A DNA stretch of 64,000 bases from a virus, in the UHGV virus genome UHGV-0179803; one strand, written 5' to 3'. Below are positions 5,186-27,220 of the stretch, one piece after another (position 1 is the stretch's first letter; every line of letters starts with the position of its first letter). The translations under genes were made by a program, and so were the position numbers. The notes under the pieces are model-generated. The model did not search any database. It was not told where the DNA came from and was given only the letters and a program-made list of their open reading frames with translations.

Positions 5186-5222
5186 GGAGAGACATGAAAG
5201 ACGAATTTGATGGCTTTTAGCT

Positions 5223-5899: not shown

Positions 5900-5975
5900 G
5901 CCCCGTTAGTTCAAATGGAAGAACAGTGGCCTTCTAAGCCATAGGTTACAGGTTCGAGTCCTGTACGGGGTGCCA
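5900..5975 (+). tRNA. tRNA-Arg (anticodon TCT)
   Basis: hand-folded cloverleaf: acceptor GCCCCGT/ACGGGGT, D-stem GTTC/GAAC, anticodon loop CTTCTAA, T-arm ACAGG-TTCGAGT-CCTGT, 3' GCCA. Confidence 0.8.
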
Positions 5976-6019
5976 ACACTTTTAACCAAAACACTAATCA
6001 TTTAAAGGAACTTAGTAAT

Positions 6020-6286: not shown

Positions 6287-6353
6287 GGTGGTTTCAGTTC
6301 ATAATCAGTTTCATTGATACATCTCCTTTCATTGGTTTATAAGTTTTAACCCG

Positions 6354-6386
6354 CCCCGTTGACTGAAATGGTCACGGGGTTTTTTA
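6354..6386 (+). terminator. rho-independent terminator
   Basis: CCCCGT...ACGGGG hairpin followed by TTTTTTATTT. Confidence 0.5.
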
Positions 6387-6407
6387 TTTGTATGTTCTGG
6401 AGGTTTC

Positions 6408-6809
6408 GTGCCAGCAGTACTTGCATTCCTGATAAAATATAAGCGCGTGATAAAATGGACTATCGCGGCTGTCTTACTGGTTGTAGCCTGCGCTGGAGTG
6501 CACAGTTGGTACAACACCCAGATACAAAATGCCTACAACGAAGGGGTCGCTGTAACAGAGCAGAAATGGGATAAACTGATGATGCAGCAGAAGCTACAGG
6601 CCAACCAGACGAAGTTGGAACACGCTTACGAAGTCAGAGAGCTTGAGCAAAAGCTGGCTAACATGCAGAACGCCATGAACGCTCCTGGAGCTTTTGGTGG
6701 GGCTACACAACAGCAGTTCCAGTCATCTCCAGAAGGGCAACAGAACCGGATCCCAGATAAAGTGATCGATATCTACAACGAAAGTATTAACTCGGAGGTG
6801 CAGCAATGA
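6408..6809 (+). CDS. i-spanin (Rz-like inner-membrane spanin component)
   Basis: GTG start after GGAGG; N-terminal TM segment WTIAAVLLVVACAGV then a Q/E/K-rich coiled-coil region; overlaps the next gene by 4 nt. Confidence 0.55.
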   Translation: MPAVLAFLIKYKRVIKWTIAAVLLVVACAGVHSWYNTQIQNAYNEGVAVTEQKWDKLMMQQKLQANQTKLEHAYEVRELEQKLANMQNAMNAPGAFGGATQQQFQSSPEGQQNRIPDKVIDIYNESINSEVQQ

Positions 6810-7102
6810 GGTGGTTACTTGCATTAGCGATTGCACTCACGTTTTCTATGGCCCTGGTAGGTTGTAGCTCACCTAAAAGTACGCCAGTTACAGTTGCACC
6901 GCAGAAAGTTGAACAACTTGCTGTAGAGCCTCCTGCGGCAGCTATGATCCCACCAGCAATAGCTATCCCCTTGGTGAAAGGTGCACCAGATGCGGATAAC
7001 TCTGCAATTATGAGGCAGAACAATCTCTCCTGTAGCAATGATCGTGCCAAATTAATCATCTTGCAGGATTATGTAAAATCTTTATTCAATAAGGAGAATT
7101 AA
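6806..7102 (+). CDS. o-spanin (Rz1-like outer-membrane lipoprotein)
   Basis: signal peptide ending in lipobox LVGC, proline-rich mature part; immediately downstream of and overlapping the i-spanin gene. Confidence 0.6.
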   Translation: MRWLLALAIALTFSMALVGCSSPKSTPVTVAPQKVEQLAVEPPAAAMIPPAIAIPLVKGAPDADNSAIMRQNNLSCSNDRAKLIILQDYVKSLFNKEN

Positions 7103-8217
7103 TGGCTAAAATGTATGGCCCATGCTCCCGTAAACAACAAATGATTCTGGAAAATGATGCCGACTTCCTGATCATTGGTGGGGCAGCGGGTTGTTTGTCA
7201 ATGCGACATGAGGTGATGACACCTAACGGGTGGATCAGAATATCGGAATGGGATGGTCAAGATATCCTCCAGTTTGATAAAGAAACTGGTAAGGCCATGT
7301 TTATCCAGCCTGAAGAGTTTGTTAAGCTGGAATGCGACAAACTAACCAGGATTGTGCAGGATGGTATTTGTCAGGAATTATCCGACGAGCACACAGTTCT
7401 GTACGTCCCAGAAGACGGAACAGCTTACGGTACACTTAATTTCGGAGAAGTGGCTGAACAGTATGCTAACGGTGAGTTGGCAATGCGTATGCAGACCACG
7501 TTTGTGAACATGGGTGGTACTGGCCTTGGCATTTCTGACGAAGAGCTGAAAGAAAGGGCAAGATATTACAAATTCACAGATGAGTGGTATAATTGTGATC
7601 GTCGTCAGTTGTTGCAGATCTGGTATGAGATTTACCTGAACGGTAATGATCCCCATGCCTACGTTGTTCCAACGAAAGAACAGGCTGATTTCTTGCAATA
7701 CCTCGGATCATCTTTAGGTTTCAACGCACAGATCTTCTTCGAAGAAGGTTACAAAGTTGTGTTCTCTAATGAACGTGCAGGTACGATTGCTCTTAATAAC
7801 GATGCAACGTTCGAAGAGTTTGAGCCGGAAGATGGTTACAAATATTGTTTTGCTACCACAACAGGCTATTTTATCACCAGACTGGAAAACTGCATTGCAG
7901 TGACTGGTAACAGTGGTAAATCCTTTCTTCTACAGCTTCTCCCACTAAAGATGATAGATGACCCCAACACTTCTGTGGTGATGTTCCGTAGGACAACTCC
8001 ACAACTGGAAGGTGAAGGTGGTCTGTGGCCTAAAGCACTGAGTGTGTATCTGGATCTTCCTGAGTACATGAGGCCGAAATTCAGAGAGAAAGACCATAAG
8101 TTTACTTTTCCATATTATGATGCAAAGACGGGCAAATGGAATAAGAAAAGAGACGGAGCAGTAATCAAATACTGCCATATGGAATACGTCCAAGATAAGC
8201 TGAATCATCAAGGGTAA
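7102..8217 (+). CDS. terL: large terminase subunit, N-terminal (ATPase) part, carrying an in-frame intein-like insertion
   Basis: flanks of the insertion rejoin as IIGGAAG|SGKSFLL, a GxxxxGKS Walker A; the reading frame stops at 8217 where intron-like sequence begins. Confidence 0.65.
   Translation: MAKMYGPCSRKQQMILENDADFLIIGGAAGCLSMRHEVMTPNGWIRISEWDGQDILQFDKETGKAMFIQPEEFVKLECDKLTRIVQDGICQELSDEHTVLYVPEDGTAYGTLNFGEVAEQYANGELAMRMQTTFVNMGGTGLGISDEELKERARYYKFTDEWYNCDRRQLLQIWYEIYLNGNDPHAYVVPTKEQADFLQYLGSSLGFNAQIFFEEGYKVVFSNERAGTIALNNDATFEEFEPEDGYKYCFATTTGYFITRLENCIAVTGNSGKSFLLQLLPLKMIDDPNTSVVMFRRTTPQLEGEGGLWPKALSVYLDLPEYMRPKFREKDHKFTFPYYDAKTGKWNKKRDGAVIKYCHMEYVQDKLNHQG
7192..7911 (+). other. candidate intein (240 aa) inserted in the terminase P-loop
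   Basis: begins with Cys (CLSMRHEV...), ends with Asn followed by Ser (..IAVTGN|SGKS); removing it restores a canonical Walker A. Confidence 0.5.
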
Positions 8218-8742
8218 ACAAACCTGCCCTTCGTGCCTAATTCGGTGAAACTCCTTGACAAAAGGACAATACCGAGCTACGGTTAAAGGATTAGTTGAAA
8301 CCGAGTGTAACGACTATCCCCGATGAGTGTAGGGGAGTAGAATCACAAGCGATTGGTGATCCAAACGGCACGCCAAGGAGGGAAGAGCTAGTCTGTTCCA
8401 CATGGTAACATGTGGCGGGTGTCTTAGCACACCGCGTCGGAGTAGCGATCCGGCGGGACAAAAGTGGAATATACTTTAATATGTTTTGATGAGGGTTAAC
8501 TGGTAGCTCTCGTAAAACCTCCCTAATTGCGGGGAAATCTTTACTATTGACACCACCAACCTATTATGGTAACATAATATTGGCTTCGGAGAAATACCGA
8601 AGGTATGGTAATAGCGTGTTGATTTAGATAATCCGCAGCGAAGCATCCTGATAGGATGTGTGCTCAACGACTATCGCTTACGGGCGTTAGGGCCAAGCGG
8701 CTGGGGAAACCCACAGTCTTTTAAGACTGCCGAAACGGGAGG

Positions 8743-9454: not shown

Positions 9455-10534
9455 ATGAGGTCGAAATCGAAATACTCTTCACGGATGGTGATCAGCTGTA
9501 ACCCGGATTCTGAACACTATTTAGCCAAACTGGTTCGTTGGTGGCTTGACGACGAGGGCTACCCAGATGAAAGCAAGTGTGGCGTTAAGCGCTATTTCAT
9601 CCGTAGGGATGGGGAATTTATCTTCGGCGATACGCCAGAAGAGTTGATCGAGAAGTATACCTATGTTAACGGCAAAGGTGTTGAGATAATCCCAAAACCA
9701 CTCTCTATCGCTTTTATCGGTGCAACAATCCACGATAACCCCATCTGCTTGCGTGATAACCCAGAATATCTTGCATTCCTGGAAGGTCTGCCAGAGCTGG
9801 AAAAAGCACAACTCCTCTACGGTAACTGGTTCGCTAAGCCTGAAGGTGCAAACTATTTCAGTCGCACATTCTTGAAAGATGCGGATCATGTCCCCCTCGG
9901 AGCAGTTTCTGTAAGAGCATGGGATAAAGCTGGTACAGAACGTACCTCTGGCAACAAATTCCCCGACTATACAGCCAGTATCAAGGTCAGTAAGGATAGT
10001 GATGGTTACTACTACATCTCCGGTGACTATTGCCCTGAAAACGTAGATGATGGCAGATATTCTACGGGCTTGCACGGTAAGTTCTGCAAGAAAGCTGGGG
10101 AACGTGATGTTATTATCAAGAAACAGGCAGAGTTTGATGGTGAGGACTGCGTAATTGTCTTCTCTGTGGACCCCGGTCAGGCAGGTAAGAGTGAGTTTCT
10201 TACTTCATCTCGTAAACTTCTTGCCGGAGGGTTCAGGGTAGAAGAAGACCCAATGCCGTCTAACAAATCAAAACTCACCCGTTTCTCCCCGTTTGCCAAC
10301 CTTGCCCAACAAGGGATGGTGCGGCTTGTCCGGTCAAGTTTCGACCCGGATACACTGGAAGCATTTTTGACAGAGCTGGAGAAATTTAACGGCGAACGGT
10401 CAACCTTTAGCCGTAAAGATGATTGGGCTGACTCCATTGCTTCTGCAATTAACTACCTTGAAAAAGAGGAAGTTGCTATGCCATGTGTTATTCCGAAGAT
10501 TGTTTCACCCTCTATGTATAAGAGGATGATTTAA
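9455..10534 (+). CDS. terL: large terminase subunit, C-terminal part (nuclease domain exon)
   Basis: frame is open from 9332; contains ISCNPDSEHY, RAWDKAGT and DDWADSIASA acidic motifs expected of a terminase RNase-H-like nuclease domain; true 5' end depends on the splice junction. Confidence 0.65.
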   Translation: MRSKSKYSSRMVISCNPDSEHYLAKLVRWWLDDEGYPDESKCGVKRYFIRRDGEFIFGDTPEELIEKYTYVNGKGVEIIPKPLSIAFIGATIHDNPICLRDNPEYLAFLEGLPELEKAQLLYGNWFAKPEGANYFSRTFLKDADHVPLGAVSVRAWDKAGTERTSGNKFPDYTASIKVSKDSDGYYYISGDYCPENVDDGRYSTGLHGKFCKKAGERDVIIKKQAEFDGEDCVIVFSVDPGQAGKSEFLTSSRKLLAGGFRVEEDPMPSNKSKLTRFSPFANLAQQGMVRLVRSSFDPDTLEAFLTELEKFNGERSTFSRKDDWADSIASAINYLEKEEVAMPCVIPKIVSPSMYKRMI

Positions 10535-10540
10535 GTAGTT

Positions 10541-10569
10541 GCCAATCTTAGATGAATGTGTTACAATAA
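10541..10569 (+). promoter_or_regulatory. sigma70-like promoter
   Basis: TTGCCA-17 nt-TACAAT upstream of the portal gene. Confidence 0.3.
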
Positions 10570-10634
10570 TCTATAGAGCATAACTAAGCCCTCTTCGGAG
10601 GGCTATTTCTTTTGTCTAACTTGAGGGTAATCTT

Positions 10635-12194
10635 GTGTCCAAGAAAAGCCGTAGGAAAAACAACGCAGCAGCCAAAGCGAGGGCTGTGAAAAAAGCTGGA
10701 AATCAAGATGCCCAGGTGCACAATGTTCGTCTGGGAGAGATTGGTTCCGGTGCACTGGCTCAGATCCAATTTGAATCTCAGCAGATGATGGTTGAGGAGT
10801 TGCGTTGGCCCAACCTTATCGCTACCGTAGAGACGATGAAATGCGACTCAACAGTAGCTACCGCTCTGGATTCTAAATATGTACTGATCACCAAAGCCTT
10901 CAACGATTTCAAAATTCTCTGTAATGAAGAGAGTGAAGAATCTAAGAAAGCAGCAGCATTTATCGACTATGCCCTGCGTAATCTCTCTAATCAGCAAACA
11001 CTTCGTGATATTGCAAGAAGTGCAGCCACCTTTAATGAATACGGCTTCTCAATATTTGAGAAAGTTTACCGTCGTGAACAGGAAGGGGAGTACGCTGGTA
11101 AATTAGTTATTGACAAGTTTGCATTCAGACCTCAAGCGAGCCTGTCCCGCAGTAACCCGTTCCAGTTTGATAAAAATAGTCGTAAACTTGAAGGTATATG
11201 GCAGTCACCGAATGCGTTTGTTAATTTCAAACGTAATTCATACGCTGGCCCACTACTTTCTGCTCCGGCAAACTTCAACGGTGAGGAGATTTTCATTCCG
11301 GCTAAGAAAATCATGATCATGACTCTTTCCGGTACAGAGTCCAATCCGGCAGGTGTTTCACCTATGATTGGTTGTTACAGATCCTTCCGTGAGAAAGTGC
11401 TGATCGAAAACCTGGAAGTGGTTGGTTGCTCCAAAGATCTTGGTGGTGTGCTTGAGCTGAAAATACCGTCCAACATTCTGAATAAAGCAAGTATCGACCC
11501 CACCTCAATGGAAGGTCAGATGGTTGCTAACCTGATGGCAGATGCTGCAAATGCCCACTCCGGTGAACAGAGTTTCTTTATTCTCCCATCGGATCGTGAT
11601 AAATCAGGTAAAGAACAGTATTCCATGGACCTGAAAGGGATCAATGGTGCTGGTAAACAATACTCCACCAAAGATCTTGTTGATGCACGTAAGAAAGCTA
11701 TCCTTGATAGATTTGGTGCTGGTTTTATTAACTTAGGTAACGACAACGTTGGTTCTTACTCGTTGTCCGAGTCCAAACAGTCTTTACATGGTCACTTCGT
11801 TAACCGTGATATTGACATTATTGTTGAGGCTTTCAACAAAGACTTCATTCCCCAGATGCTGGCGCTGAACGGTATCTACCTCTCCAATGAGGATATGCCG
11901 AAACTCAAACCAGGGTTGACTGAAAAAGTTGACATGGAAGAGTTCTCCAAATTCGTACAGCGTATTGGTGCAGTTGGTTATCTGCCTAAAACTCCGGGTG
12001 TTATCAATAAAATCCTTGAAGTTGGTGGTTTTGACTACCGCGTTGATGAGGATATTGACACTGAAGAGTTAATGCAAATACTGGGTCAGGATGTAAGTCG
12101 GTCAGGTGACGGTATGGCGGCGGGGACCAACGGTAATGGCACGTCCAGAATGTCATCCACACGCGATAATTCTGTATCAAATATGGAAAATTAA
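10635..12194 (+). CDS. portal protein (putative)
   Basis: GTG start after GAGGG; 519 aa; position immediately after terminase; no motif-level confirmation. Confidence 0.55.
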   Translation: MSKKSRRKNNAAAKARAVKKAGNQDAQVHNVRLGEIGSGALAQIQFESQQMMVEELRWPNLIATVETMKCDSTVATALDSKYVLITKAFNDFKILCNEESEESKKAAAFIDYALRNLSNQQTLRDIARSAATFNEYGFSIFEKVYRREQEGEYAGKLVIDKFAFRPQASLSRSNPFQFDKNSRKLEGIWQSPNAFVNFKRNSYAGPLLSAPANFNGEEIFIPAKKIMIMTLSGTESNPAGVSPMIGCYRSFREKVLIENLEVVGCSKDLGGVLELKIPSNILNKASIDPTSMEGQMVANLMADAANAHSGEQSFFILPSDRDKSGKEQYSMDLKGINGAGKQYSTKDLVDARKKAILDRFGAGFINLGNDNVGSYSLSESKQSLHGHFVNRDIDIIVEAFNKDFIPQMLALNGIYLSNEDMPKLKPGLTEKVDMEEFSKFVQRIGAVGYLPKTPGVINKILEVGGFDYRVDEDIDTEELMQILGQDVSRSGDGMAAGTNGNGTSRMSSTRDNSVSNMEN

Positions 12195-15245: not shown

Positions 15246-16670
15246 GTGTTCTATCCAGTTGAATATGATCCGAAATTACGGATTTTCAATAACCAGGTAG
15301 ACTTCTACGAATTTCTGGCAGAAGCTAATCCAGAAATCAACGTAGGTCTGTCTGCGTTATTACCACCAACCGAATTTGTTGTTGGTGAAAAACACTTCCC
15401 ATGCAGAACGATTGTGGATTTCTTCGAACAGATTGCAGAACAGACTGGATTGCCAATCGACACGGAAGCCTCCACTATCCGTATGGGTGTAATTCTTTTG
15501 TTCTTCACAGAAGACTTGGGTGAGAGCATCTTAACACTTCAAAGCGGTGATGCTCATATTACGCTTACCCCTTCCGTGTTTAAAGAGGTAGATGCTGCTT
15601 CCAAGGTTTCAGTGGCAAAAGGTCATCTGTGGTATCCTGAAGAAATGCCCAGCAAGGTTACCATAAATGATGAGCAATGTGATGTTGTTTATGCAGAGGG
15701 TACTCAAACTTTCACCATTGGGTGGCCTAAGAAACGTTCTCAGGTTGTAAATCCAGGTCTGACTTCCGAACCGATTGTAAGAGAAGAGTGGGAAGAGAGT
15801 CCTAATACGCTACCAAATGAAAGAGCACTTAAAGAAGACGGTACTTTAAAAATGGGAACGGGTGTAAAAGGCACTTATGCTACAGTTACCAGTGATGGGG
15901 TAATTGAATTAGCACTCATTCCAATGATACCTGGTCGTAAAGTATTAGGTCCTGCTGGCGATGATGGTATTTTTACTAAAACAGAAAAAGGCGACGTTTC
16001 TTGTTTCTTTGGTGTGACTAGTTTGAAATATCCGTTAAAAGATGTAATTGGTTTATATGATTCCATTACTTTAGATGTAATTAGTGATGGTACACCTATA
16101 CAAAAAATGGACTTACAATTACATAATGGCGGTTGGTATGACAAAAACGGAGAAATGTTAGAGGGTACTTACCTTGACGAATATACTATTCAAGAAGCCA
16201 CTCGTGTATCATTCTATGCAGAAAGGGGTAGAGAACATAAGTTTGTTTTAAGTGCTACCTCTGGAGAAAACACGGAGAGCATAGAAGTTACCGTTATTGA
16301 TGAGTACGTAGAACCGGATCCTGAACCAGAGCTGGAACCAGAGCCGGACCCGGATACAGGAGTTGACCCAGGACCTGATCCAGAATCATTACCTGAGCCA
16401 GGACCCACTGTGGGAGACAACGGTGAAACTACAGGGCCTGCTGAATCACAGGGTGCGGAGCCAGCTATAATGACAATGAGTATGGAAGAAGCTGCTCCCG
16501 ATAGCGTCGATGCCATCCTACAGCAGGCTGCTGTTTTAGAAGACGAAGCAGACAAGAGTGGCTCTAAAGTGGCTCTTGAAGCATTCGCCAAACAATACGG
16601 TGTGAGCTTAGCTCGAAATAAAACTTTCGCCAATATGATGAAAGATTTCGAAGCAGCTCTTAGAGCATAA
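15246..16670 (+). CDS. head-associated protein with acidic Pro-Glu-Asp-rich linker
   Basis: GTG start after AAAGGAG; PEPELEPEPDPD...PGPDPESLPEPGP segment; position after capsid gene. Confidence 0.4.
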   Translation: MFYPVEYDPKLRIFNNQVDFYEFLAEANPEINVGLSALLPPTEFVVGEKHFPCRTIVDFFEQIAEQTGLPIDTEASTIRMGVILLFFTEDLGESILTLQSGDAHITLTPSVFKEVDAASKVSVAKGHLWYPEEMPSKVTINDEQCDVVYAEGTQTFTIGWPKKRSQVVNPGLTSEPIVREEWEESPNTLPNERALKEDGTLKMGTGVKGTYATVTSDGVIELALIPMIPGRKVLGPAGDDGIFTKTEKGDVSCFFGVTSLKYPLKDVIGLYDSITLDVISDGTPIQKMDLQLHNGGWYDKNGEMLEGTYLDEYTIQEATRVSFYAERGREHKFVLSATSGENTESIEVTVIDEYVEPDPEPELEPEPDPDTGVDPGPDPESLPEPGPTVGDNGETTGPAESQGAEPAIMTMSMEEAAPDSVDAILQQAAVLEDEADKSGSKVALEAFAKQYGVSLARNKTFANMMKDFEAALRA

Positions 16671-16696
16671 AATTAAAAATTACACCACTACTGGCC

Positions 16697-16735
16697 CCAC
16701 ACCATTCCCGGTCTGGGGCTTTATTTTTATCAGCT
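16697..16735 (+). terminator. rho-independent terminator
   Basis: GCCCCA...TGGGGC hairpin followed by TTTATTTTTAT. Confidence 0.5.
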
Positions 16736-16754
16736 TACATGTTATAATAATTAA

Positions 16755-17456
16755 GTGTTCATAATCCTCAAAGGAGATAGAATGGCGTGGTATGAAGAAG
16801 AAGAGGTAGTCCCTACTCCTGGTGGGGGAGAGCCTGAAAATCCAGATCCTGTAGGGCCAGATGTTGGTGAAGGCGAGGAACCCACAGATCCTGTGCCTGA
16901 GGAACCGGAACTGCCGACTGTACCAGATGAAGATATTGATCCAGATTTTAGTCAAGAAGATTCATTGTCAGCATTCGTTCGTATTCTGCTTGGTAATGTA
17001 TCACCTGAAGTACTTCCACCGGAAACACTGGCTCTGTTTGTAGAAATGGCAGTAATGAAATACGATCTGGAAAACCATCCAGAAAGGTTGCCGAATGTCA
17101 AATATGATGCAATGGTCCAGGCTGTACGCTGGCTGATGGTTCAGGAAGTTGCGAGCGGTGAGTCCAGCATCAGTTCTCGTCTGGAAAAAGTTGGTGATGA
17201 AACTATCGAAGTCCGTATAGGTCAGACTACATGGCAAGGCTGGAAAGACTTCCTTGACTGGCTGGTTGCCAATCCAGATTATGTTGACTCTGAACTGGAT
17301 TCCTGTGGCAGACTGGTTATCATCGGTGGTGTGCGTGAAGATGAGTTCCAGAGAGTCAAACGTAATAGAAACAGTGTTTGTGGCTTTGATGTTTCTGGTA
17401 TCACACCTATGAGTGGTTTACATGGACAACCAAAAAGATACCCATCTCGCAGGTAA
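16755..17456 (+). CDS. virion protein with acidic Pro-rich N-terminus
   Basis: RBS AAAGGAG; N-terminal EEEEVVPTPGGGEPENPDPVGPD... low-complexity region. Confidence 0.35.
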   Translation: MFIILKGDRMAWYEEEEVVPTPGGGEPENPDPVGPDVGEGEEPTDPVPEEPELPTVPDEDIDPDFSQEDSLSAFVRILLGNVSPEVLPPETLALFVEMAVMKYDLENHPERLPNVKYDAMVQAVRWLMVQEVASGESSISSRLEKVGDETIEVRIGQTTWQGWKDFLDWLVANPDYVDSELDSCGRLVIIGGVREDEFQRVKRNRNSVCGFDVSGITPMSGLHGQPKRYPSRR

Positions 17457-17472
17457 TTTGCTAAATTAGTAT

Positions 17473-17501
17473 TGAAAATTGTTGCAGCCTGTGGTATAAT
17501 T
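17473..17501 (+). promoter_or_regulatory. sigma70-like promoter with extended -10
   Basis: TTGAAA-17 nt-TATAAT preceded by TGTGG. Confidence 0.45.
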
Positions 17502-17518
17502 TATCTATTGGGGGCAAA

Positions 17519-17986
17519 GTGCTTAGAGTAAAATGCACTTCTAAAACCAATTTTAAGCCGCTTGAAAGGTTCCACAGGGAACTTATTAAGTTGGAAAGTA
17601 AAACAATCTCCTATGGATTCTACGACGAAGAACATTACTCCGGCCTGAATATGGCAACACTGGCTGCAATTCATAACTTTGGCTGGAATGGTCTTCCGGT
17701 TCGTAACTTCATGGAAACTGCTTTCGTATTTTATAATGCGGAACTCTCCAAGCAGATGGAACGACTGCTCCGCGCGATGGCGCGTGGGGCAAGTCCAGAT
17801 ACTATCCTGAAGCAAATCGGTAAAGGCGGGGCTGAGGCCATTAAGTTTGTTATCGAGGCGGGGATGTTCAGCAATCCAAAGGTTAGCGAACAGTGGGCGC
17901 AAGAAAAAGGCTTTAACGAAGCTATGCGTCATTATGATGTGTTGCTTGAGTCAGCAACCTTCAAAATCGGACAATTAAAAGACTAA
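17519..17986 (+). CDS. head-tail joining/neck protein (hypothetical)
   Basis: GTG-start ORF between head and tail modules; position-based. Confidence 0.35.
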   Translation: MLRVKCTSKTNFKPLERFHRELIKLESKTISYGFYDEEHYSGLNMATLAAIHNFGWNGLPVRNFMETAFVFYNAELSKQMERLLRAMARGASPDTILKQIGKGGAEAIKFVIEAGMFSNPKVSEQWAQEKGFNEAMRHYDVLLESATFKIGQLKD

Positions 17987-17996
17987 TGGAGGTTGA

Positions 17997-18434
17997 ATGG
18001 CTGTAGGCTACAGATTGATTGGTAAAAATAAATTAATTCCGAGAAAGACTTTTAAAGGTCGTCACAGAACGCTTAAACGCATTGATAACAGCCCTTTTGC
18101 TAACAAAGGTGTTGAGCTTGAGATAGAAGAGTTCGATGTTTTAGAATGCGTTATGCAGCCTTTAACAGGCCGTGCGGCTAAAGACTACTCCTCGCAAATT
18201 AACCCCGAAGGTGGCAGACAATACGAAGCGTATACAGTTTACTCTTCTGTACGTCTACGTAACCCCGACGAAGGGGAATATCAACTTGCAGATCAGATCC
18301 AGTTGCCAAACCTGCATGGTGAGTTAACATGGTTCACTGTTCTGAAATGCGATCAATATCATACATCAGGTGTGGAAAGATACCGCTCCTATGTTGTGGA
18401 AGAACCCGCAAATAACGAAGGAGACACAATCTGA
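17997..18434 (+). CDS. head-tail joining/neck protein (hypothetical)
   Basis: RBS GGAGG; overlaps next gene by 1 nt; position-based. Confidence 0.35.
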   Translation: MAVGYRLIGKNKLIPRKTFKGRHRTLKRIDNSPFANKGVELEIEEFDVLECVMQPLTGRAAKDYSSQINPEGGRQYEAYTVYSSVRLRNPDEGEYQLADQIQLPNLHGELTWFTVLKCDQYHTSGVERYRSYVVEEPANNEGDTI

Positions 18435-18982
18435 TGGAAGAGTTTGAAAAAGTTTTTAGCGATCTGGAGGAAATTGTTGCTAAGATGGCAAGAGTTGCCA
18501 CAGGCAGACGTGTCATCATGGGTGATCAGGAGATCATTCCGAAACCAGATGGTGAGTTTATCCTTCTTGAAACGATGGGTATTCAGCCACACATCTGGGA
18601 AGACAATGAATTCCAGACCGAAGAGGGTGTTGCTTACGTTACCCACAACTACACAGTTACCTATATGTTAACTGCCTATCGTGGTAAAGCGTATGCAGCA
18701 TTGTCCAGATTATTGCAAGCAATAAACCTTCCGATGTTTTACGATAAATTCTTTCCTGATGGTTCTATGTACGCCTATTCTTCGGCCTCTACAATCTCAC
18801 CTCTGCGAGTACCGATGAATAAGCAAGCATATGAGGTAAGAGCCACGGTAATGATGACGTTTAACGTCAGGTTTATTGAGACTGACATGGCAGCGTTCGA
18901 AGATCTTCAGGGCATCGAAGCTGAGCTTCATGTTCTCCACCCTGCTGATGACAGTCAAGCGGTTATCGACCCTGGTCAGTAA
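18434..18982 (+). CDS. head-tail joining/tail completion protein (hypothetical)
   Basis: ORF track; position-based. Confidence 0.35.
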   Translation: MEEFEKVFSDLEEIVAKMARVATGRRVIMGDQEIIPKPDGEFILLETMGIQPHIWEDNEFQTEEGVAYVTHNYTVTYMLTAYRGKAYAALSRLLQAINLPMFYDKFFPDGSMYAYSSASTISPLRVPMNKQAYEVRATVMMTFNVRFIETDMAAFEDLQGIEAELHVLHPADDSQAVIDPGQ

Positions 18983-19054
18983 TCGTTCTCCATGTAGCGT
19001 AATGATTATGCTACTTGTTAATATCCTGTGCACAAGATATTGAAGAGGAAACAA

Positions 19055-20443
19055 ATGCCTTACAATGATAAAGTTGTCGATGTGCAAGTAAACCTGGGTA
19101 CACAGCCGATTGACACAGTAGGCTTCGAAACTCCCCTGTTTATTGCCATCCACAATAATTTTACTGAACGCGCTCGCGTTTACGCTGAACTCGATCAGTT
19201 AGTTGACGATGGTTTTGCACCAGGTAGTGCTGCTCACACCTTCGCTTCTAACGCTTTCGGTGGTGAGTTTCCGCCACAATACATTGTCATTGGTCGTCAG
19301 GCTGCAACAGAAACTGTTGTTGACTTTGTTGGTGGTGTATTCCCAGCTGAATCTGAAGTTATCGTAAACGTAGCAATCCCTAATTATGATCGTGCCGTAG
19401 TCATCCAAGTTGGTGGTGGTACTGCTGCTACAGCAATTGCTGAGGCTCTGGCTACAGCGATCACTGAAGATGAAACCTTGTCAGGTGCTGGCGTAACTGC
19501 TACCGCTGGGGAAGGTAAAGTTACCGTTACAGGGGCTACCGTAGGCTACAGTGCTGGCGATTTCAAAATCGAAAATAAATCTGATGAAACTCCGCAGACG
19601 ATTATCGATGAAATCAATGACGCGAACAACAACTGGTATTTCCTGTGTGCCGAAGATCACAGCACTACTGCTATCACAGCTCTTGCAAAATGGGCACAAG
19701 CTAACTACAAACTCCATGTTTACTCCACTGCTGATGAAGATGCAATGGGCGTAGAAGGGGGTATCGGTTACGCTCTCAAACTGCTCCAGATTGATAATAC
19801 CATAGGTATGTGGGATCCGCGTGCTAACATGGACTTCCCAGAAGGTGGTATCATCGGTGCAATGGCATCCAATGACCCGTCATATGGTGATAGCTTACAC
19901 CTGAAAAAAATGCCAGGCATTACTCCTCCGAACATGAGTATCGGACAGAGAATGGCATTGTGGGATAATAACCTGAACTTCTACAGAATGATCAATGGTG
20001 TTGGTTGCTTCTGGGAAGGTAAATGCGCTTCAGGCCAATATGCTGACGTAATCAGATTCTCCCACTGGATCAAATTCCGTTCCGAAGAATCTATGTTTGG
20101 CTACATGCATCGCAGATCCAATATAGGCATGAGCATGAAAATGTCTGATGATGACCTGCCTGTTATTAAATCTGTTCTGATGAACGACCCGATCAACGTT
20201 GGTATCACCAACGGTGCTATCCTGACCGGATATGACGAAGAAAATAGTGTGTTCTATGATCCGATTATCACTGTTCCGAAACGTGCTAACATCCCTACCA
20301 ATCAGCTGGCTGCTCGCACTTTGGAAGGTGTTAAAGTAGAACTGGTCTATAACAACGCTCTGCACTTTGTTAAAATCCGTATCAATGTCCTGCTGGACAA
20401 AACGGGTACTACCGGCACAAGTGCTCAGGCAATGACTGCATAA
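19055..20443 (+). CDS. tail sheath protein (putative)
   Basis: 463 aa from ATG after GAAGAGGAAACAA; directly followed by a ~157-aa gene, the usual sheath-tube pair; biased codon usage. Confidence 0.5.
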   Translation: MPYNDKVVDVQVNLGTQPIDTVGFETPLFIAIHNNFTERARVYAELDQLVDDGFAPGSAAHTFASNAFGGEFPPQYIVIGRQAATETVVDFVGGVFPAESEVIVNVAIPNYDRAVVIQVGGGTAATAIAEALATAITEDETLSGAGVTATAGEGKVTVTGATVGYSAGDFKIENKSDETPQTIIDEINDANNNWYFLCAEDHSTTAITALAKWAQANYKLHVYSTADEDAMGVEGGIGYALKLLQIDNTIGMWDPRANMDFPEGGIIGAMASNDPSYGDSLHLKKMPGITPPNMSIGQRMALWDNNLNFYRMINGVGCFWEGKCASGQYADVIRFSHWIKFRSEESMFGYMHRRSNIGMSMKMSDDDLPVIKSVLMNDPINVGITNGAILTGYDEENSVFYDPIITVPKRANIPTNQLAARTLEGVKVELVYNNALHFVKIRINVLLDKTGTTGTSAQAMTA

Positions 20444-20454
20444 CAGGAGGGTAA

Positions 20455-20928
20455 ATGGTCACAGATATTTTAACACCTTATGCATATGACCCGAAAAAGG
20501 TTCGTCTCTACTTGATGACTCAGAGAGTATTCGGTTTTGCAGCGGATACAAAAATTGTTGTTTCTCGTAACGAGGACAATATTTACCCGCATATGGGCGT
20601 GGATGGTGAACTAAGTGCAGCTTTATCCCGTAACCAATCTGGTGTAATGACTGTATCTTTACAGAACACCTCCGCATGGAACGCCTACCTGTCAGACTGG
20701 CAGAAACAAGCATCTATCACAGGTCTTGTATTCTTCCCAGTGCTGCTGGAAGGTAGCCAGGGGCCAGGCATCAGCACTATTGGCTGGATTCAGAAACAAC
20801 CTGATCTGACTTATGGTACTGAAGTTGCCCAACTTGACTGGGAAATCGGCGTACTGGATTGCTGGTTAAACAAAGACAACATCGAATCTGCAATGATGGG
20901 ACTTGCAGGTTTAACTGGTATCATTTAA
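20455..20928 (+). CDS. tail tube protein (putative)
   Basis: 157 aa after RBS AGGAGGG; followed by strong terminator. Confidence 0.45.
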   Translation: MVTDILTPYAYDPKKVRLYLMTQRVFGFAADTKIVVSRNEDNIYPHMGVDGELSAALSRNQSGVMTVSLQNTSAWNAYLSDWQKQASITGLVFFPVLLEGSQGPGISTIGWIQKQPDLTYGTEVAQLDWEIGVLDCWLNKDNIESAMMGLAGLTGII

Positions 20929-20934
20929 TGCTAC

Positions 20935-20963
20935 AGGCCACCTTCGGGTGGCCTTTCTTGTTT
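20935..20963 (+). terminator. rho-independent terminator (UUCG tetraloop)
   Basis: AGGCCACCTTCGGGTGGCCT hairpin then TTTCTTGTTT. Confidence 0.6.
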
Positions 20964-20970
20964 ATAAGGT

Positions 20971-21000
20971 TTGACAAAAGTTGGTGTTTTGTGGTATAGT
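20971..21000 (+). promoter_or_regulatory. sigma70-like promoter with extended -10
   Basis: TTGACA-18 nt-TATAGT preceded by TGTGG. Confidence 0.5.
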
Positions 21001-21033
21001 TCCTTTGTGTTTAAAATTACTAGGAGTTTACAG

Positions 21034-22560
21034 ATGGCTGGAAAATGTTACACTAAAAAAGAATGGCTAACAGCTGTCTTCAAAGAAAACCCTGAGTTTG
21101 AAGAAATGTACGATTACAGTCAAACTGAGTACAAAGGCAGTAGAGAAAAAGTGAGCATTATTTGCAAAAAACATGGTGCGTTTTCTGTAGAAGCAAATGC
21201 TCATAGAAAAGGAGAGGGATGCAAAGAATGCTACCTTGAGCGTAAACGTGGAAACAAGGAAGAATTCGTTGAAAAAGCTAAAGAAGTGCATGGGGTGCGT
21301 TACAACTACTCTAAGGTTGTGTATAAAGACAGAGTGACAAAAGTAGATATCATCTGCCCTGATCACGGAGTGTTCTCACAAAAACCTAGCAAACATTTGA
21401 GAGGACAGGGCTGCCCCCATTGTGCTAACATGGCTCGTGGTAGAAAAAGAAGAAACTCTTTTGAGGAAGTAGTGGAACAGGCCAAAGAGGTCCACAAAGA
21501 TAAATACGTTTACAAAGGTATGTTTTACGATGAAAGGAAGAAAGGTATTCTTAATATTAAATGTTCAAGGTGTGGATCAGAGTTCCAACAACCTGTGAAA
21601 GACCATGTACACCAAAATCATGGGTGTAGACATTGTGCAAAACTAACCTCAAGAGTGGAAGAATCTGTCTTTGACTTCATAAAAACTATCTGCCCAGACG
21701 CGGAGCAGTCTGATCGCACTATCCTGGATGATGGCAAAGAGTTAGATATCTATGTCCCATCAAAGCGTGTGGCGATTGAAGTCAATGGTATCTTCTGGCA
21801 TGGAGACAATCATAAGCCTAGGGATTATCATTACAAAAAATGGTTAGCCTGTAAAGAGAAAGGTATTCGTCTGATCCAGATCACAGATTATGATTGGAAT
21901 AACAACCAAAAAGTGTTTAGCCAGTTGCTGGCTCATGCCTTGGGGTGCAATAGTGAGCGTAAAGTGAATGCTAGGGAATGCGAAGTGGTGCATCTCAAAT
22001 CAACAGAGTGCAAAGAGTTTTACAACGCTTACCACCCACAAGGCCATTCTCCTAACCCAATTAATCTGGCCTTGAAAACGAAAGAAGGGGAAATTGTAGC
22101 GATCATGAGCTTTGGTTATGGTAAAACTACAAGGGGTCAGGCCAGAGCTAACGGTACGACTAAAGCAACATGGGAGTTATCAAGATTTGCATCAAGCTGC
22201 TCTGTTCGTGGTGGGGCATCTCGACTGTTTAAAACGTTCATCAGAGAGAACAATCCAGAAGAGGTTAGCTCATTCAGCATGAATGACTACTTCGCTGGTG
22301 GGGTTTACGAAGTGTTAGGATTTGTTGCGGAGACGTATGGCAAACCAGACTACAGAGTGTTCCATCCGTTCAGCGGGTTACGCCACAAATCATACTGGCA
22401 ACGCCGTAATATCCCGAAACGTTTGAAAGAACTGGGTAAAGAAGAATTAAACTTTGACCCAGAAATTGATCAGCGTACAGAGCGGGAGATAGAGGATTTG
22501 GTTGGTGCTATCCGGTTGTGGGACAGCGGCAAGATCAAATGGGTATGGAAAGCTGAGTAA
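21034..22560 (+). CDS. free-standing putative endonuclease: triple zinc-ribbon N-terminus plus Vsr/DUF559-like nuclease domain
   Basis: three repeats of C-x2-HG-x-F...G-x-GC-x2-C; C-terminal DIYVPSKRVAIEVNGIFWHGDNH resembles the Vsr-type D..P...AI.V.G.FWHG motif; own promoter and RBS AGGAG. Confidence 0.5.
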   Translation: MAGKCYTKKEWLTAVFKENPEFEEMYDYSQTEYKGSREKVSIICKKHGAFSVEANAHRKGEGCKECYLERKRGNKEEFVEKAKEVHGVRYNYSKVVYKDRVTKVDIICPDHGVFSQKPSKHLRGQGCPHCANMARGRKRRNSFEEVVEQAKEVHKDKYVYKGMFYDERKKGILNIKCSRCGSEFQQPVKDHVHQNHGCRHCAKLTSRVEESVFDFIKTICPDAEQSDRTILDDGKELDIYVPSKRVAIEVNGIFWHGDNHKPRDYHYKKWLACKEKGIRLIQITDYDWNNNQKVFSQLLAHALGCNSERKVNARECEVVHLKSTECKEFYNAYHPQGHSPNPINLALKTKEGEIVAIMSFGYGKTTRGQARANGTTKATWELSRFASSCSVRGGASRLFKTFIRENNPEEVSSFSMNDYFAGGVYEVLGFVAETYGKPDYRVFHPFSGLRHKSYWQRRNIPKRLKELGKEELNFDPEIDQRTEREIEDLVGAIRLWDSGKIKWVWKAE

Positions 22561-22564
22561 TCAT

Positions 22565-22588
22565 AAGCCTCTTCGGAGGCTTTTCTGT
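22565..22588 (+). terminator. rho-independent terminator (UUCG tetraloop)
   Basis: AGCCTCTTCGGAGGCT hairpin then TTTCTG. Confidence 0.5.
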
Positions 22589-22593
22589 CTACA

Positions 22594-22622
22594 TTGACAA
22601 AAAGTGAGTACAATGTTATAAT
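22594..22622 (+). promoter_or_regulatory. consensus sigma70 promoter
   Basis: TTGACA-17 nt-TATAAT, spacer ends in TGT. Confidence 0.6.
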
Positions 22623-22701
22623 AAATCTATATAATAACGTGGTGGTGACAGTTGTCTAAAATCGCATATCTGAATGCTTTTCATAAGAGGATAATAAAGA
22701 A

Positions 22702-23844
22702 ATGACAGATATCTACAACGATAAAGTTGTACACGCCGAGGTGGCTCTTGGTAAAGACGCTGCATCGGGTGGCAACAGGACTTCTCTGGATAAAGAGGCT
22801 TTACGAAGTTATGTTCTTGCTGCTAGAGAGGCGGCTAACAAAGCTAAAGTGGCTTCAGAAGAGGCAGCTTTATCACGAGACGCTTCCCAAGCAAACGCTA
22901 ACAATGCATCGATTTCCGCAACCAATGCACAAGATAGTGCAGATCGTGCAGAATCAGCAGCTAACGCAGCCGAATTATCTTCCTCTTCTGCTGAGGGCAG
23001 TGCAACTGCCGCTGCCTTATCTGCAACGCAAGCATCCGCTGATGCATCTACAGCAACACAAGCAAAAGATGACGCTGTTGCAGCCTCTGGTGTGGCAACC
23101 CAACAAGCAGCAAATGCTGAATCATCTGCCGATACATCCGCTGAAAGTGCAGATGCAGCAGCAGCAAGTGCCGCTTCTGCTCAAGGATCTGCAACTTCTG
23201 CTTCCGGTTCTGCCACGACTGCAACAGAGAAAGCAACAGCAGCGAACAAATCTGCCACCGCAGCAAAAACGTCAGAGACTAATGCCAAAACCTCTGAAAC
23301 CAACGCCGCAAGCTCAGCTAGTGCAGCATCCGTTTCAGAAAGCAATGCTTCTGATTCTGCAACAGCAGCAGAGTCTTCAGCGACTTCTGCAAGATCGAGT
23401 GCTTCAAGTGCATCGACAAGCGCCAGCACAGCCACTACTAAAGCGAACGAAGCTGCAACCAGCGCCACTGATGCTGCTAACAGTGCCAAATCCGCTTCTA
23501 ATAGTGCATCAACTGCGACAACAAAAGCAGGTGAAGCAAGTAAGTCAGCAACAGATGCTGCAAATTCAGCAAGCTCTGCTTCAGCAAGCAAAGATGCTGC
23601 TGCTGCCTCAGCCAGCGCCGCAGCTACCAGCGAAACCAAAGCAAAAGCCAGTGAAACTGCTGCTGCAAGCTCTGCTTCTTCGGCAGCCACCAAAGCATCC
23701 GAGGCTGCAACATCTGCCACTAACGCAGCAAAAAGTGCATCAGACGCTGCAAATAGTGTGGAGGAGGTAAAAGCACAGTTCGAACAGCGCCTTACTGAAC
23801 TTGAGGCAAGAATTGCTGCTCTTGAGGGTGCTAAAAATAATTGA
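22702..23844 (+). CDS. Ala/Ser/Thr-rich repeat protein resembling the stalk region of side-tail-fiber (Stf-like) proteins, ending in a coiled coil
   Basis: repeats such as TAAKTSETNAKTSETNAASSASAAS and ATTKANEAATSATDAANSAKSAS resemble the repeat region of lambda-type side tail fibers; C-terminal QFEQRLTELEARIAALEG heptad segment; no receptor-binding C-terminal domain. Confidence 0.55.
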   Translation: MTDIYNDKVVHAEVALGKDAASGGNRTSLDKEALRSYVLAAREAANKAKVASEEAALSRDASQANANNASISATNAQDSADRAESAANAAELSSSSAEGSATAAALSATQASADASTATQAKDDAVAASGVATQQAANAESSADTSAESADAAAASAASAQGSATSASGSATTATEKATAANKSATAAKTSETNAKTSETNAASSASAASVSESNASDSATAAESSATSARSSASSASTSASTATTKANEAATSATDAANSAKSASNSASTATTKAGEASKSATDAANSASSASASKDAAAASASAAATSETKAKASETAAASSASSAATKASEAATSATNAAKSASDAANSVEEVKAQFEQRLTELEARIAALEGAKNN

Positions 23845-24011
23845 CACAAAAACCGCTTGATGTATTATGCCTCCAACAAACAAGTTGGGGGCTTTTGCTA
23901 TGAAACACTTTGAAGAGACTTAGGGTTGCATCTTTTGGATTATTGCAACACTGATGATCGGTCTGTTCTTTGTTGTACCTGGTGTGGAGGCTGCACGGAC
24001 TATGCACCTTG

Positions 24012-24040
24012 TTGACAAAAAGAAAGTACAATGCTATAAT
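24012..24040 (+). promoter_or_regulatory. consensus sigma70 promoter
   Basis: TTGACAAAAAGAAAGTACAATGCTATAAT, near-identical to the element at 22594. Confidence 0.55.
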
Positions 24041-24086
24041 AAACCTATGCGATAACGCATAACAACTAACTTAAGGGTAACGAGAA

Positions 24087-24551
24087 ATGCCAAACTTTAG
24101 ACCTACTACAGAAATAGATTTAGTCGGACATAACTTCATCATAACCCATTGGTCCCCGATGGTGTGTATGCATAACCTGCCAAAGATTGGTAGGATTATC
24201 GCTGTGCCGATGGGAGCTATTGGTGGTGAATTACTTAATGGTGGGAGAAATTTAGCAGAAGTGCTCCCAACAGCCTTAGTCTATCTGTTCGAACAACTTG
24301 ATGACCAATCTATTGACGAACTGTTTAAAATCCTCTTCAGCGATGTTACAGTAGACGGTGTGGACAAGGTGGATCCTGATAAACTCTTTACTGGCAATCT
24401 GTTTGCAATGCTTAAACTGGCTGGTAAGGTGCTGGAGGTAAATTACGGATCTTTTTTCACGCAAGAAGGTTTAGACGGCCTGATGTCGATGTTGCAGGGA
24501 CTGCAAATGGCGAATCAGATCAACAGTCTGGACCAGGAAACTCAGGAATAA
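24087..24551 (+). CDS. tail assembly chaperone (putative)
   Basis: 154-aa acidic protein directly upstream of the tape measure gene; position-based. Confidence 0.4.
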   Translation: MPNFRPTTEIDLVGHNFIITHWSPMVCMHNLPKIGRIIAVPMGAIGGELLNGGRNLAEVLPTALVYLFEQLDDQSIDELFKILFSDVTVDGVDKVDPDKLFTGNLFAMLKLAGKVLEVNYGSFFTQEGLDGLMSMLQGLQMANQINSLDQETQE

Positions 24552-24865: not shown

Positions 24866-27220
24866 ATGGCTGGTAACAAAGTGGTTGCCACAACCACAAA
24901 CCGAATTACATTTGAGATTGACAACAATAGCTACAAAAAAGCTATTGAAAGAATTAAAGGATTAGGCAGAGAGTTTACAAAGCTGGGCGATTCTTTGGGA
25001 AAGGGGAATCCTCTGAAAGCCTGGCAAGCATCAATGGAGAAGACTGGTCAGATTGTTCAGAGGGTACAGAATAAACAGTTGCAACAGCAACGCCGTATGC
25101 ATCAGGAAGCTGTATCCCAGGCCAAACGTGAAGCTGCTGTACGATCTGCGATAGAAAAACGTGAGAATGCCAGAAGGAAACAGGTTGTCGGTCAGATGAC
25201 TGCCAAAGATCCTGAATTGGTGAGAATGCGTAAATTCTATCAGGAGCAATCTAAGTTGGCTAAGAAAAGTGGTGGCTTAGGTGGTTCCTACTTCTCCAAC
25301 AAACCAGTCTCACCTCGTGCTCTGTCCAGAGCAAATACCTTCAGATATATCCCAGGTAACCCCAACATGGGGGGTGTAGCTTCCAACCCTGCACTTGTTC
25401 GTGCCCAGACTGCCGCTATGAATAGATGGCATAAGCAGAATGGTGGTACAGGAGGCTCAGGAACGCCAAGGCGCAACAATGTAGGCATGGATAGGCTAAC
25501 ACACCTTACCAATATGTCAACGCGTCTGACAGCTCGTTATGGGGCTAATTTCAGGGATATGCTTGGCGGCTACCGTCAGGTTGAACAGCAATACGCAAAA
25601 GGGTTGATAGGTAAGTCAACTTTCAACGCCCAGATCGCTGCAATGCAGAAGGGGTTTGCTAATGCTGCTGCCGGAACCATGTCTTTGAGCACTGCCTTCA
25701 ATAAACTAAGAACAACAGTCATGGATCTGACCAAAGCATACACTGCATTCTCTGCAATTGTTAGTGTTAACAGGTCTGGTCACATGATGGAAGGTGCGAG
25801 TGCTGCTCTCACTAACGTTATGGGTGATCCTACGAAAGCTAACGCGGAAGTTGCATTCGTGCAAAGTGAGGCTATGAGATTAGGCTTCGACCTGAAATCA
25901 GGTCTGCAAGGTTACGCTCAAATGGCAGTAAACGCCAAAAACCAAATGACAGGGCAGGAAGTCCGTGATCTGTTCTCTGCTTATTCGCAATATGCTGCGT
26001 CTTATGGTGCTGATGAAGTGAAATACCAACGTGGTATTATGGCAATCCAGCAAATGCTCGGCAAAGGGCAGGTAATGTCGGAGGAACTAAAACAACAATT
26101 GGCAGAGGCAATGCCGGGTGCTTACGAGCCGTTCATTAAAGCAACAAAAGAGGCTTTCAACCTGTCCGAGCTGACTATGGAACAGTTCATGGACATGATG
26201 CAGAAAGGCCAGGTCAAAACAGCCAAAGTAATGAAATATGTTGCTAAGTACATGAACGAAGCATCTGCTGCTGGTTATGAACGTATGCAGAAATCTAACG
26301 TTCTGGCTGAAAACCGTTTGAAAACTTTCATCGAATTAACCAAACAGAAACTGTTCACTACATGGTCAGATGAACTTACCGAGTTCTATTACACCCTGAT
26401 CCGTACAGGTGAAACATTCACCCCTATGATTATGCAAGCTGGTGAGTTTGTATCTGGCTTTATCCAAGGTCTGAACGACATTGTTGGTGAATTGAATAAT
26501 ACAATTGTTAGTATTCGTATCTGGTGGTTGCAAGTCAGAGATCACTTTGGTCTGCTGAAAAAAGAAGTCAAAGATACAAGCAACACTGTTGATGAAACCT
26601 TCAGCAAAGCTAAGTGGGTGGGCTATGCATTCTCCATCTTAGTTGTTGTTAGCGCTGTTGGTAGATTGTTAAAAATCATCAAAGCTGTTGCCGCAACCTT
26701 AGGTATGATTAAAGCTGCGGGTGGTATAGCAGGTGCTATAGGTGGTGCCGCAGGTGGCGCAGCTGCCGGAGGAGCAGCGGCAGGAGGTGCAGCAGCCATG
26801 GCTAAGAAAGGATTGTTTGCAAGGATACTTGGTGGCCTGTGGAAATACAAAGGACCATTAGCTATTGGCTACATGGGGTATGAAGGTGCCAACCTGATTG
26901 ACGAATGGATGCAAAACTACCATCAGGAAACTGACGTGACTAAGCATCCGCAGTGGCTTGTTGATGGTGTTAATGGTATTTCATCTTTCTTTGGCTTGGA
27001 CTACCGCATGGATAATCCAATTACCTACAGAGCTAATCCAACCCCAAGTACACCTTTGGATCCGTTCCAATCTTTCAACGTTCCTCCGATTCCTCTGGAA
27101 ATTGGTGAGGGTAAAATTACAATTGAGTTTGACGCTGCTCAGTTCGAAGAAATGCTGGATGCAAGGTTTGAATGGGAAAACTGGAAAGATATTAACTTGT
27201 TTGCAAGTCCTAATAACTAA
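24866..27220 (+). CDS. tail tape measure protein
   Basis: 784 aa; helical N-terminal region, hydrophobic segments and Gly/Ala-rich stretch GGAAGGAAAGGAAAGGAAA; follows the chaperone genes. Confidence 0.7.
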   Translation: MAGNKVVATTTNRITFEIDNNSYKKAIERIKGLGREFTKLGDSLGKGNPLKAWQASMEKTGQIVQRVQNKQLQQQRRMHQEAVSQAKREAAVRSAIEKRENARRKQVVGQMTAKDPELVRMRKFYQEQSKLAKKSGGLGGSYFSNKPVSPRALSRANTFRYIPGNPNMGGVASNPALVRAQTAAMNRWHKQNGGTGGSGTPRRNNVGMDRLTHLTNMSTRLTARYGANFRDMLGGYRQVEQQYAKGLIGKSTFNAQIAAMQKGFANAAAGTMSLSTAFNKLRTTVMDLTKAYTAFSAIVSVNRSGHMMEGASAALTNVMGDPTKANAEVAFVQSEAMRLGFDLKSGLQGYAQMAVNAKNQMTGQEVRDLFSAYSQYAASYGADEVKYQRGIMAIQQMLGKGQVMSEELKQQLAEAMPGAYEPFIKATKEAFNLSELTMEQFMDMMQKGQVKTAKVMKYVAKYMNEASAAGYERMQKSNVLAENRLKTFIELTKQKLFTTWSDELTEFYYTLIRTGETFTPMIMQAGEFVSGFIQGLNDIVGELNNTIVSIRIWWLQVRDHFGLLKKEVKDTSNTVDETFSKAKWVGYAFSILVVVSAVGRLLKIIKAVAATLGMIKAAGGIAGAIGGAAGGAAAGGAAAGGAAAMAKKGLFARILGGLWKYKGPLAIGYMGYEGANLIDEWMQNYHQETDVTKHPQWLVDGVNGISSFFGLDYRMDNPITYRANPTPSTPLDPFQSFNVPPIPLEIGEGKITIEFDAAQFEEMLDARFEWENWKDINLFASPNN

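Follow-up and report, generated by a model that had tools for sequence, protein, structure and literature searches.

A probable free-standing Hef-like homing endonuclease gene with a Mom-like domain between the tail tube and tail assembly chaperone genes of an rV5-like phage

The gene described here lies in a stretch of viral DNA of 64,000 nucleotides (UHGV-0179803), referred to as the window, which showed full identity to a metagenome contig in ENA, 139.5 kb long, and represents an rV5-like phage distantly related to the Mydovirus-type (Vequintavirinae) phages. The open reading frame (21034..22560, + strand) starts with ATG at 21034, has its stop codon at 22558-22560 and encodes a protein of 508 aa, which PHROG and tblastn matches placed in the Hef-like homing endonuclease family. 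On its left is the tail tube gene (20455..20928, +; 157 aa, Pfam Phage_Tube_PhiTE), and the right flank of the site is formed by the tail assembly chaperone gene (24087..24551, +; Pfam Phage_TAC_15). The conserved order sheath, tube, chaperone and tape measure had been described as interrupted by the nuclease gene, and comparison bore this out: in Ro1 and 20 other outgroup loci the chaperone gene was found 80-180 bp from the tube gene, as it was wherever an outgroup contig extended to the chaperone. In the window the interruption spans 3.0 kb and, besides the nuclease gene, contains another gene (22702..23844, +), which encodes an Ala/Ser-rich, repetitive protein of 380 aa. The window was also searched for paralogues of the nuclease elsewhere, and none was found.

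The nuclease gene carries a full set of expression signals. Its promoter (20971..21000, +) consists of TTGACA (20971-20976), a spacer of 18 nt and TATAGT (20995-21000), with the -10 hexamer preceded by TG (TGgTATAGT, an extended -10; TGGTATAGT), and scored 11/12 in the promoter scan. A Shine-Dalgarno sequence, AGGAG (21022..21026, +), precedes the ATG by 7 nt, so the promoter and ribosome-binding site reported in the earlier note are both present. The hairpin scan placed intrinsic terminators after the tube gene (20935..20954, +) and after the nuclease gene (22565..22582, +). Since it has its own promoter, AGGAG and terminator and follows the terminator of the tube gene, the nuclease gene is an autonomous transcription unit. 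The Ala/Ser-rich gene has a promoter of perfect sigma-70 consensus (22594..22622, +) and a terminator at 23869-23892, and another perfect sigma-70 promoter (24012..24040, +) precedes the chaperone gene and marks the right edge of the variable region, as judged by promoter scan and flank comparison. A copy of the tube-gene terminator hairpin, 37 bp long and 92% identical, was seen on the minus strand at 55963-55999 of the window.

The N-terminal part of the protein is made up of three zinc modules: module 1 (21049..21252, +; aa 6-73, ligands C44, H47, C63 and C66), module 2 (21253..21453, +; aa 74-140, ligands C108, H111, C127 and C130) and module 3 (21454..21645, +; aa 141-204, ligands C177, C180, C198 and C201). 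Three similar zinc modules also appeared in the AlphaFold2 model of the protein. Zinc ribbons had been proposed from the letters of the sequence, and the profile search agreed, with DUF4379 matching in two stretches above the Pfam cutoff (31.8 bits vs 24.5); the best DUF4379 stretch, aa 176-203, lay in module 3. Among 34 relatives, DUF4379 was matched in 33, DUF723 in 28 and CapR in five. In the family alignment the four ligands of each unit were invariant or nearly so. By Pfam score and ligand pattern, the N-terminal modules are thus assigned to the treble-clef zinc type (DUF4379 / DUF723 / CapR). The three tandem units had all been described as C-x2-HG; there are indeed three, and the C-x2-H pattern is true for units 1 and 2, but unit 3 reads C-x2-C-G, its ligands being arranged as C-x2-C ... 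C-x2-C.

Next to the zinc modules is a Vsr-fold nuclease domain of the EDxHD type (21646..21948, +; aa 205-305), in which S206, E209, D238, E249, N251, H256, D258 and K269 are invariant. The Vsr-like segment ELDIYVPSKRVAIEVNGIFWHG had been placed at the C-terminus of the protein; the segment is there, but in a central position, with about 200 aa beyond it. Pfam Vsr by itself gave a sub-threshold score: the cutoffs of Vsr proper were reached neither for PF03852 (15.9 bits vs 27) nor for TIGR00632 (14.5 bits vs 97.85), and the assignment of the Vsr fold follows from the family profile and the structure model. The protein has a Vsr fold and is no Vsr orthologue. The profile of the nuclease domain matched I-Bth0305I (PDB 3r3p) with an E-value of 3.6e-9, at 22% identity over 91 aligned residues, and in the profile comparison D238, N251 and H256 were aligned with D196, N208 and H213 of that enzyme. 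The invariant E209 is located in the preceding helix, like E170 of I-Bth0305I, which falls outside the aligned stretch. The column of D222 of I-Bth0305I, the fifth EDxHD residue, was not conserved in the window family, and an invariant Asp (D258) occurs two residues past the His (H256). Sequence profile and model together indicate that the nuclease domain is homologous to that of I-Bth0305I, a proven homing endonuclease.

The remaining 40% of the protein, about 200 aa, was absent from the earlier note and constitutes a Mom-like GNAT domain (21949..22557, +; aa 306-508), the region in which the family is best conserved. When the structure model was compared with solved structures by Foldseek, the best match was Mom of phage Mu (8bv8; E-value 7.8e-6), followed by ordinary GNAT acetyltransferases. 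The C-domain of the window protein by itself had no Pfam match, Mom (PF25680) included, and its relatives scored 24.9-28.8 bits with that profile, against a gathering cutoff of 27.1 (the top score, 28.8, being that of P0107). Alignment of 121 C-domains with 111 Mom homologues by hhalign gave an E-value of 1.7e-5 over 131 columns; hhalign against the single sequence of Mu Mom was not significant, and a search of PDB sequences with the profile of the C-domain returned chance matches only and missed Mom. The homology was therefore seen only with the structure model and the Mom family alignment.

In that alignment H58, R111, S124 and Y159 of Mom correspond to H334, R384, S396 and Y425 of the window protein, and each of these was present in 87-99 of the 121 family members. 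D149 and R151, invariant in the 111 Mom homologues, are replaced by M416 and D418, while a second subtype of the window family has D-R-Q/R at this motif; the dimerisation residue W48 of Mom is not kept in the window domain. R111, S124 and R151 are reported to be essential for Mom, and D149A to lower its activity strongly (PMC13219725). Mom is thus the closest GNAT fold according to the structure model, and the momylation residues R111 and S124 are present, but because D149 and R151 are replaced, the domain is regarded as Mom-like in fold and in part of the pocket and not as a canonical Mom. With these two important residues replaced, the domain most likely serves in DNA binding or base flipping and not as a complete modifier of the Mom type.

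Over its length the protein belongs to a large and already named family. It matched phrog_559 with an E-value of 3e-103 over aa 9-507 and phrog_3339, labelled "homing endonuclease", with 2.4e-72; an NCBIfam search of the protein returned nothing significant. In tblastn against sequenced phages 966 records matched, 156 of them covering at least 80% of the query. The full-length matches were commonly annotated "Hef-like homing endonuclease", the best being 40-43% identical (Xanthomonas phages phiL7, OP1 and CP1), and Campylobacter phages carried up to 9-11 copies per genome. On this homology the protein is a member of the Hef-like / EDxHD homing endonuclease family. The tie to the founder Hef of phage U5 is drawn from the annotations of the depositors and from Taylor et al. 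(2011; PMC3239194), who placed Hef-type enzymes in the EDxHD family with I-Bth0305I. The PHROG label of phrog_559, "HNH endonuclease", was rejected, as no HNH family was found in the Pfam matches of the protein and 34 relatives. This label is a misnomer for a Vsr-fold nuclease, and annotations copied from it will be wrong.

For comparison of the insertion site, sequenced phages were searched with the 6-kb region by megablast; matches were limited to the sheath and tube genes, at 72-73%, so that no sequenced phage is a close relative, and relatives were therefore taken from metagenomes. A total of 36 related loci were fetched, and the sheath, tube, nuclease, Ala/Ser-rich, chaperone and tape measure genes were located in each. 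Tube proteins were 95-100% identical to that of the window in its clade and 62-89% in the outgroups. In the outgroup locus L017 the short gap between tube and chaperone genes consists of a terminator and a sigma-70-like promoter. Within the clade the flank proteins were 92-100% identical, and at least five cargo sets occupied the site. The window carries the nuclease gene and the Ala/Ser-rich gene. L007 has an orthologue of 93% identity and an ORF of 112 aa; L014 and L013 have orthologues of 92% and 86%, respectively, alone; L008, L009 and L010 have an allele of 70% alone; and L015 has an allele of 32%. In L005 an allele of 582 aa (54%) is accompanied by a remnant of the Ala/Ser-rich gene, and in L004 and L012 an ORF of 108 aa is found with a nuclease of 621 aa (33%). 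L011 carries an allele of 69% followed by a second nuclease of the same family; these tandem genes, encoding 515 aa and then 621 aa, lie at 5001-8503 between tube and chaperone. All alternative nucleases tested belonged to phrog_559.

In L006, a contig near-identical to the window, the Ala/Ser-rich gene comes straight after the tube gene. By blastn, 27-4564 of L006 corresponds to 16421-20958 of the window and 4599-4874 to 22629-22910, so that the nuclease cassette (20959..22628, +) has 1670 bp in the window for 34 bp in L006. The sequence of this contig stops within the Ala/Ser-rich gene, 1 kb further on; L006 is the sole nuclease-less case in the clade, and a nuclease further 3' is possible. 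A fully empty tube-chaperone site was found in none of the clade contigs. The loop of the tube terminator is inverted in L006 (4535-4565, = window 20931-20958), CCCGAAGG vs CCTTCGGG, with the stem kept. Homology among the relatives stops just 3' of the tube terminator, at 20958 or 20977. Variants diverge exactly at the -35 hexamer past this terminator, and the cassettes of L004 and L005 begin at the same TTGACA. Flank identity to L004 and L005 ends at 20977 and restarts at 24012 in L004 and at 23813 in L005, and the whole variable region between the conserved flanks is accordingly delimited as 20978..24011 (+). The gene is thus not a constant feature of this position in related phages, and the constancy that would have spoken against the earlier note is not seen: the outgroup sites are empty, L006 is without the cassette and other near-identical genomes carry different alleles at the same position.

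The occupant of the site has been exchanged even between close relatives. The flanks of L004 and L005 were 98-99% identical to those of the window (dS 0.02-0.05 for L005) and their nucleases were unalignable or saturated; from this it follows that the occupant was replaced in both. A different kind of exchange is suggested by the P0002 allele (L008): its nuclease and Mom-like domains were 93% and 89% identical, respectively, to those of the window protein, against only 37-46% for the zinc modules (zinc dN 0.55). By these sequence comparisons the putative DNA-reading part was either exchanged or diverged very fast. In the comparisons with L007, L014 and L013, dN/dS was 0.05-0.2 in each of the three regions, and 0.05-0.12 in the Mom-like domain; the whole protein, the Mom-like domain included, therefore appears to be kept functional. 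In the window, L007, L013 and L014, the dS of the nuclease gene (0.3-0.6) was near that of the flanks (0.25-0.3), and the gene thus seems to have been inherited with its neighbours in this sub-lineage. This dS pattern would fit long vertical residence as well as recent homing. In L004 (8846-9300, = window 24000-24400), the right flank was only 91-92% identical to the window over its initial 400 bp, which take in the promoter and half of the chaperone gene from its 5' end, and 99-100% identical further out. This divergent tract may be a trace of co-conversion linked to the different, 621-aa nuclease of L004, and it is the sole hint of this kind. A cleavage site was also sought from the sequence, and none could be inferred.

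The Ala/Ser-rich gene does not depend on the nuclease gene for its occurrence. Its protein had matches only to tail-fibre PHROGs, of low complexity. The gene occurs without the nuclease in L006 (72% identical), is a remnant in L005 and is missing from the other clade members. That it is part of the nuclease cassette was rejected on account of this independent occurrence (L006 vs L008, L013 and L014). Its promoter region and that of the chaperone gene form direct repeats flanking it (22594-22639 and 24012-24057 of the window; about 85% identical over 46 bp), with copies in L005, and such repeats could mediate gain or loss of a cassette by recombination.

Other junctions of the tail operon are variable as well, since extra DNA was found between chaperone and tape measure in the outgroups L033 (6995-8445, 1.4 kb), L031 and L035 (both about 7004-7518). 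In L013, L014 and L015, all close relatives, an insert of about 830 bp (10239-11054 in L013) interrupts the tape measure gene behind the codon for residue 412. The insert of L013 contains an ORF of 196 aa (10300-10890) that has the HNH-type motif VNHKDGNKANNH and resembles an HNH homing endonuclease of the intron-borne or free-standing kind. The tape measure gene of the window (24866-27220) is uninterrupted.

Several known systems resemble the window gene in part. Hef-like enzymes of T4-like, ViI-like, Campylobacter, Xanthomonas, Klebsiella and jumbo phages share full-length homology with it, and their genes, like the window gene, are free-standing, have their own expression signals and are situated beside conserved structural genes. 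One Hef-like gene of LIMEstone also adjoins the tail tube gene (PMC3296691), and Hef was reported to cut close to its own locus, in nrdB (PMC2988022). The site of the window, however, between tube and chaperone, was found occupied in no sequenced relative compared. I-Bth0305I (3r3p) has the same Vsr-type fold and the same core D, N and H, but is intron-encoded, with NUMOD/HTH DNA-binding regions and a C-terminal nuclease (PMC3239194), whereas the window protein is free-standing and has three zinc modules and an extra Mom-like domain 3' of the nuclease; in place of a conserved residue at D222, its family has D258 and K269 invariant. Mom of phage Mu (8bv8) is a stand-alone, Gly-tRNA-dependent modifier of adenine, while its counterpart in the window is a domain of a nuclease. 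The T5orf172/GIY-YIG homing endonucleases show the same repeated CapR/DUF723/DUF4379 modules and module swapping as the window family (Barth et al. 2023, PMC10448857). They also share with the window gene fixed positions in tail operons and interchangeable occupants (PMC10448857). Their catalytic domain is T5orf172/GIY-YIG, in contrast to the Vsr fold of the window protein.

Based on these comparisons, the gene probably codes for a free-standing homing endonuclease of the Hef-like (EDxHD, Vsr-fold) type and forms an autonomous cassette in the terminator-promoter spacer between tube and chaperone genes. A free-standing homing or mobile nuclease had been suggested in the earlier note, and that suggestion gains from the homology of the Vsr fold to I-Bth0305I and from the empty or differently filled sites of the relatives. 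The three N-terminal treble-clef modules would read a long DNA target, and the central Vsr-fold domain would cut it by means of D238, H256, N251 and E209. In a mixed infection, a related genome without the allele would be cut near the tube-chaperone junction, and repair of the break by recombination with the carrier genome would copy in the cassette together with neighbouring markers. We infer the cutting by the enzyme, the position of the cut and homing as the process of spreading from the pattern at the locus and from the relatives of the protein. A parallel is provided by homing endonuclease genes that can stand in for one another at a single place in phage tail operons (Barth et al. 2023, PMC10448857). 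Several observations count against the homing reading: a fully empty site was seen in no clade contig, with L006 as the sole nuclease-less case; the flank-like dS in four genomes suits long vertical residence equally well; conservation is strongest in a domain for which a plain homing endonuclease has no obvious use; and the fifth EDxHD residue, at the position of D222, appears not to be conserved.

The main rival explanation is favoured by how strongly the Mom-like domain is conserved. The protein could be a modification-plus-restriction enzyme in a single chain, in which the Mom-like domain modifies the phage's own adenines and the Vsr-fold nuclease attacks unmodified DNA of the host or of a superinfecting phage. 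Fusions of Mom domains to REase-fold nucleases were reported from jumbo phages, five of them in PA5oct, and read as a modification-plus-restriction pair (Iyer et al. 2021, PMC7824862). The C-domain of the window protein had four matches in PA5oct, annotated as Hef-like homing endonucleases, from which it would seem that "Hef-like homing endonucleases" and Mom-nuclease fusions are the same proteins. Also in its favour are the strong purifying selection that acts on the Mom-like domain (dN/dS 0.05-0.12) and the wide retention of the equivalents of H58, R111, S124 and Y159. However, the equivalents of D149 and R151 are exchanged in the window protein, which by itself has no Pfam Mom match; the gene is distributed like a selfish element, with variable presence, replacement of alleles and up to 11 copies per genome; and zinc modules that read sequence and vary between alleles are more in keeping with a long specific target than with general restriction. 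We consider this explanation rather unlikely.

Less likely than this are a domesticated role and a dead relic. A former homing endonuclease could have become a DNA-binding regulator of the tail operon, like CapR in PLE satellites, or a defence against satellites or competitors. Zinc modules of the CapR/DUF723/DUF4379 type, of which domesticated examples are known (Barth et al. 2023, PMC10448857), would agree with this, as would the purifying selection, the flank-like dS in four genomes and the fact that no full-length member of the clade has the site unfilled. However, the nuclease has invariant catalytic residues, so its activity seems to be retained, and the occupants are interchangeable, down to 32% identity, with outgroups having none at all, which speaks against an essential role at the tube-chaperone locus; domestication is accordingly considered improbable. 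As homing endonuclease genes often degenerate after fixation in a population, the gene might also be what is left of a mobile nuclease gene that has lost its activity and is in decay. An ORF intact at 508 aa, with all zinc ligands and catalytic residues present, a dN/dS of 0.05-0.2 and an intact promoter, ribosome-binding site and terminator make this very improbable.

A more speculative possibility, to which we give only a small chance, is that Hef-type enzymes are self-protecting "homing restriction-modification" elements, in which the Mom-like domain is an active transferase, possibly dependent on aminoacyl-tRNA as Mom is. If so, an adenine in the element's own target would be modified in the carrier and the nuclease would cut only the unmodified copies of competitors. 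The altered positions of D149 and R151 would then signify a different donor or chemistry, not lost activity.

Taken by itself, the window gene is ordinary in kind, one more probable homing endonuclease gene among those of phage tail operons. Its value is in the natural series found in public metagenomes, in which near-identical phages (flanks 98-99%) differ in the cargo at one site: no nuclease, the window nuclease, a version of it in which the zinc modules are swapped, alleles of the family unrelated to it, and two nucleases in tandem. This allele series is good material for mapping of targets, for co-conversion tracts and for the exchange of DNA-reading modules. The second point of value is that the most conserved part of the family is a Mom-like GNAT with the equivalents of R111 and S124. 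A literature search for Mom or GNAT linked with homing endonucleases found nothing relevant, and the link between the Hef-like and the Mom-nuclease literatures was not found to be made in the papers examined. As the chemistry of Mom is now known (2026), a possible modification of DNA by Hef-like nucleases has become directly testable.
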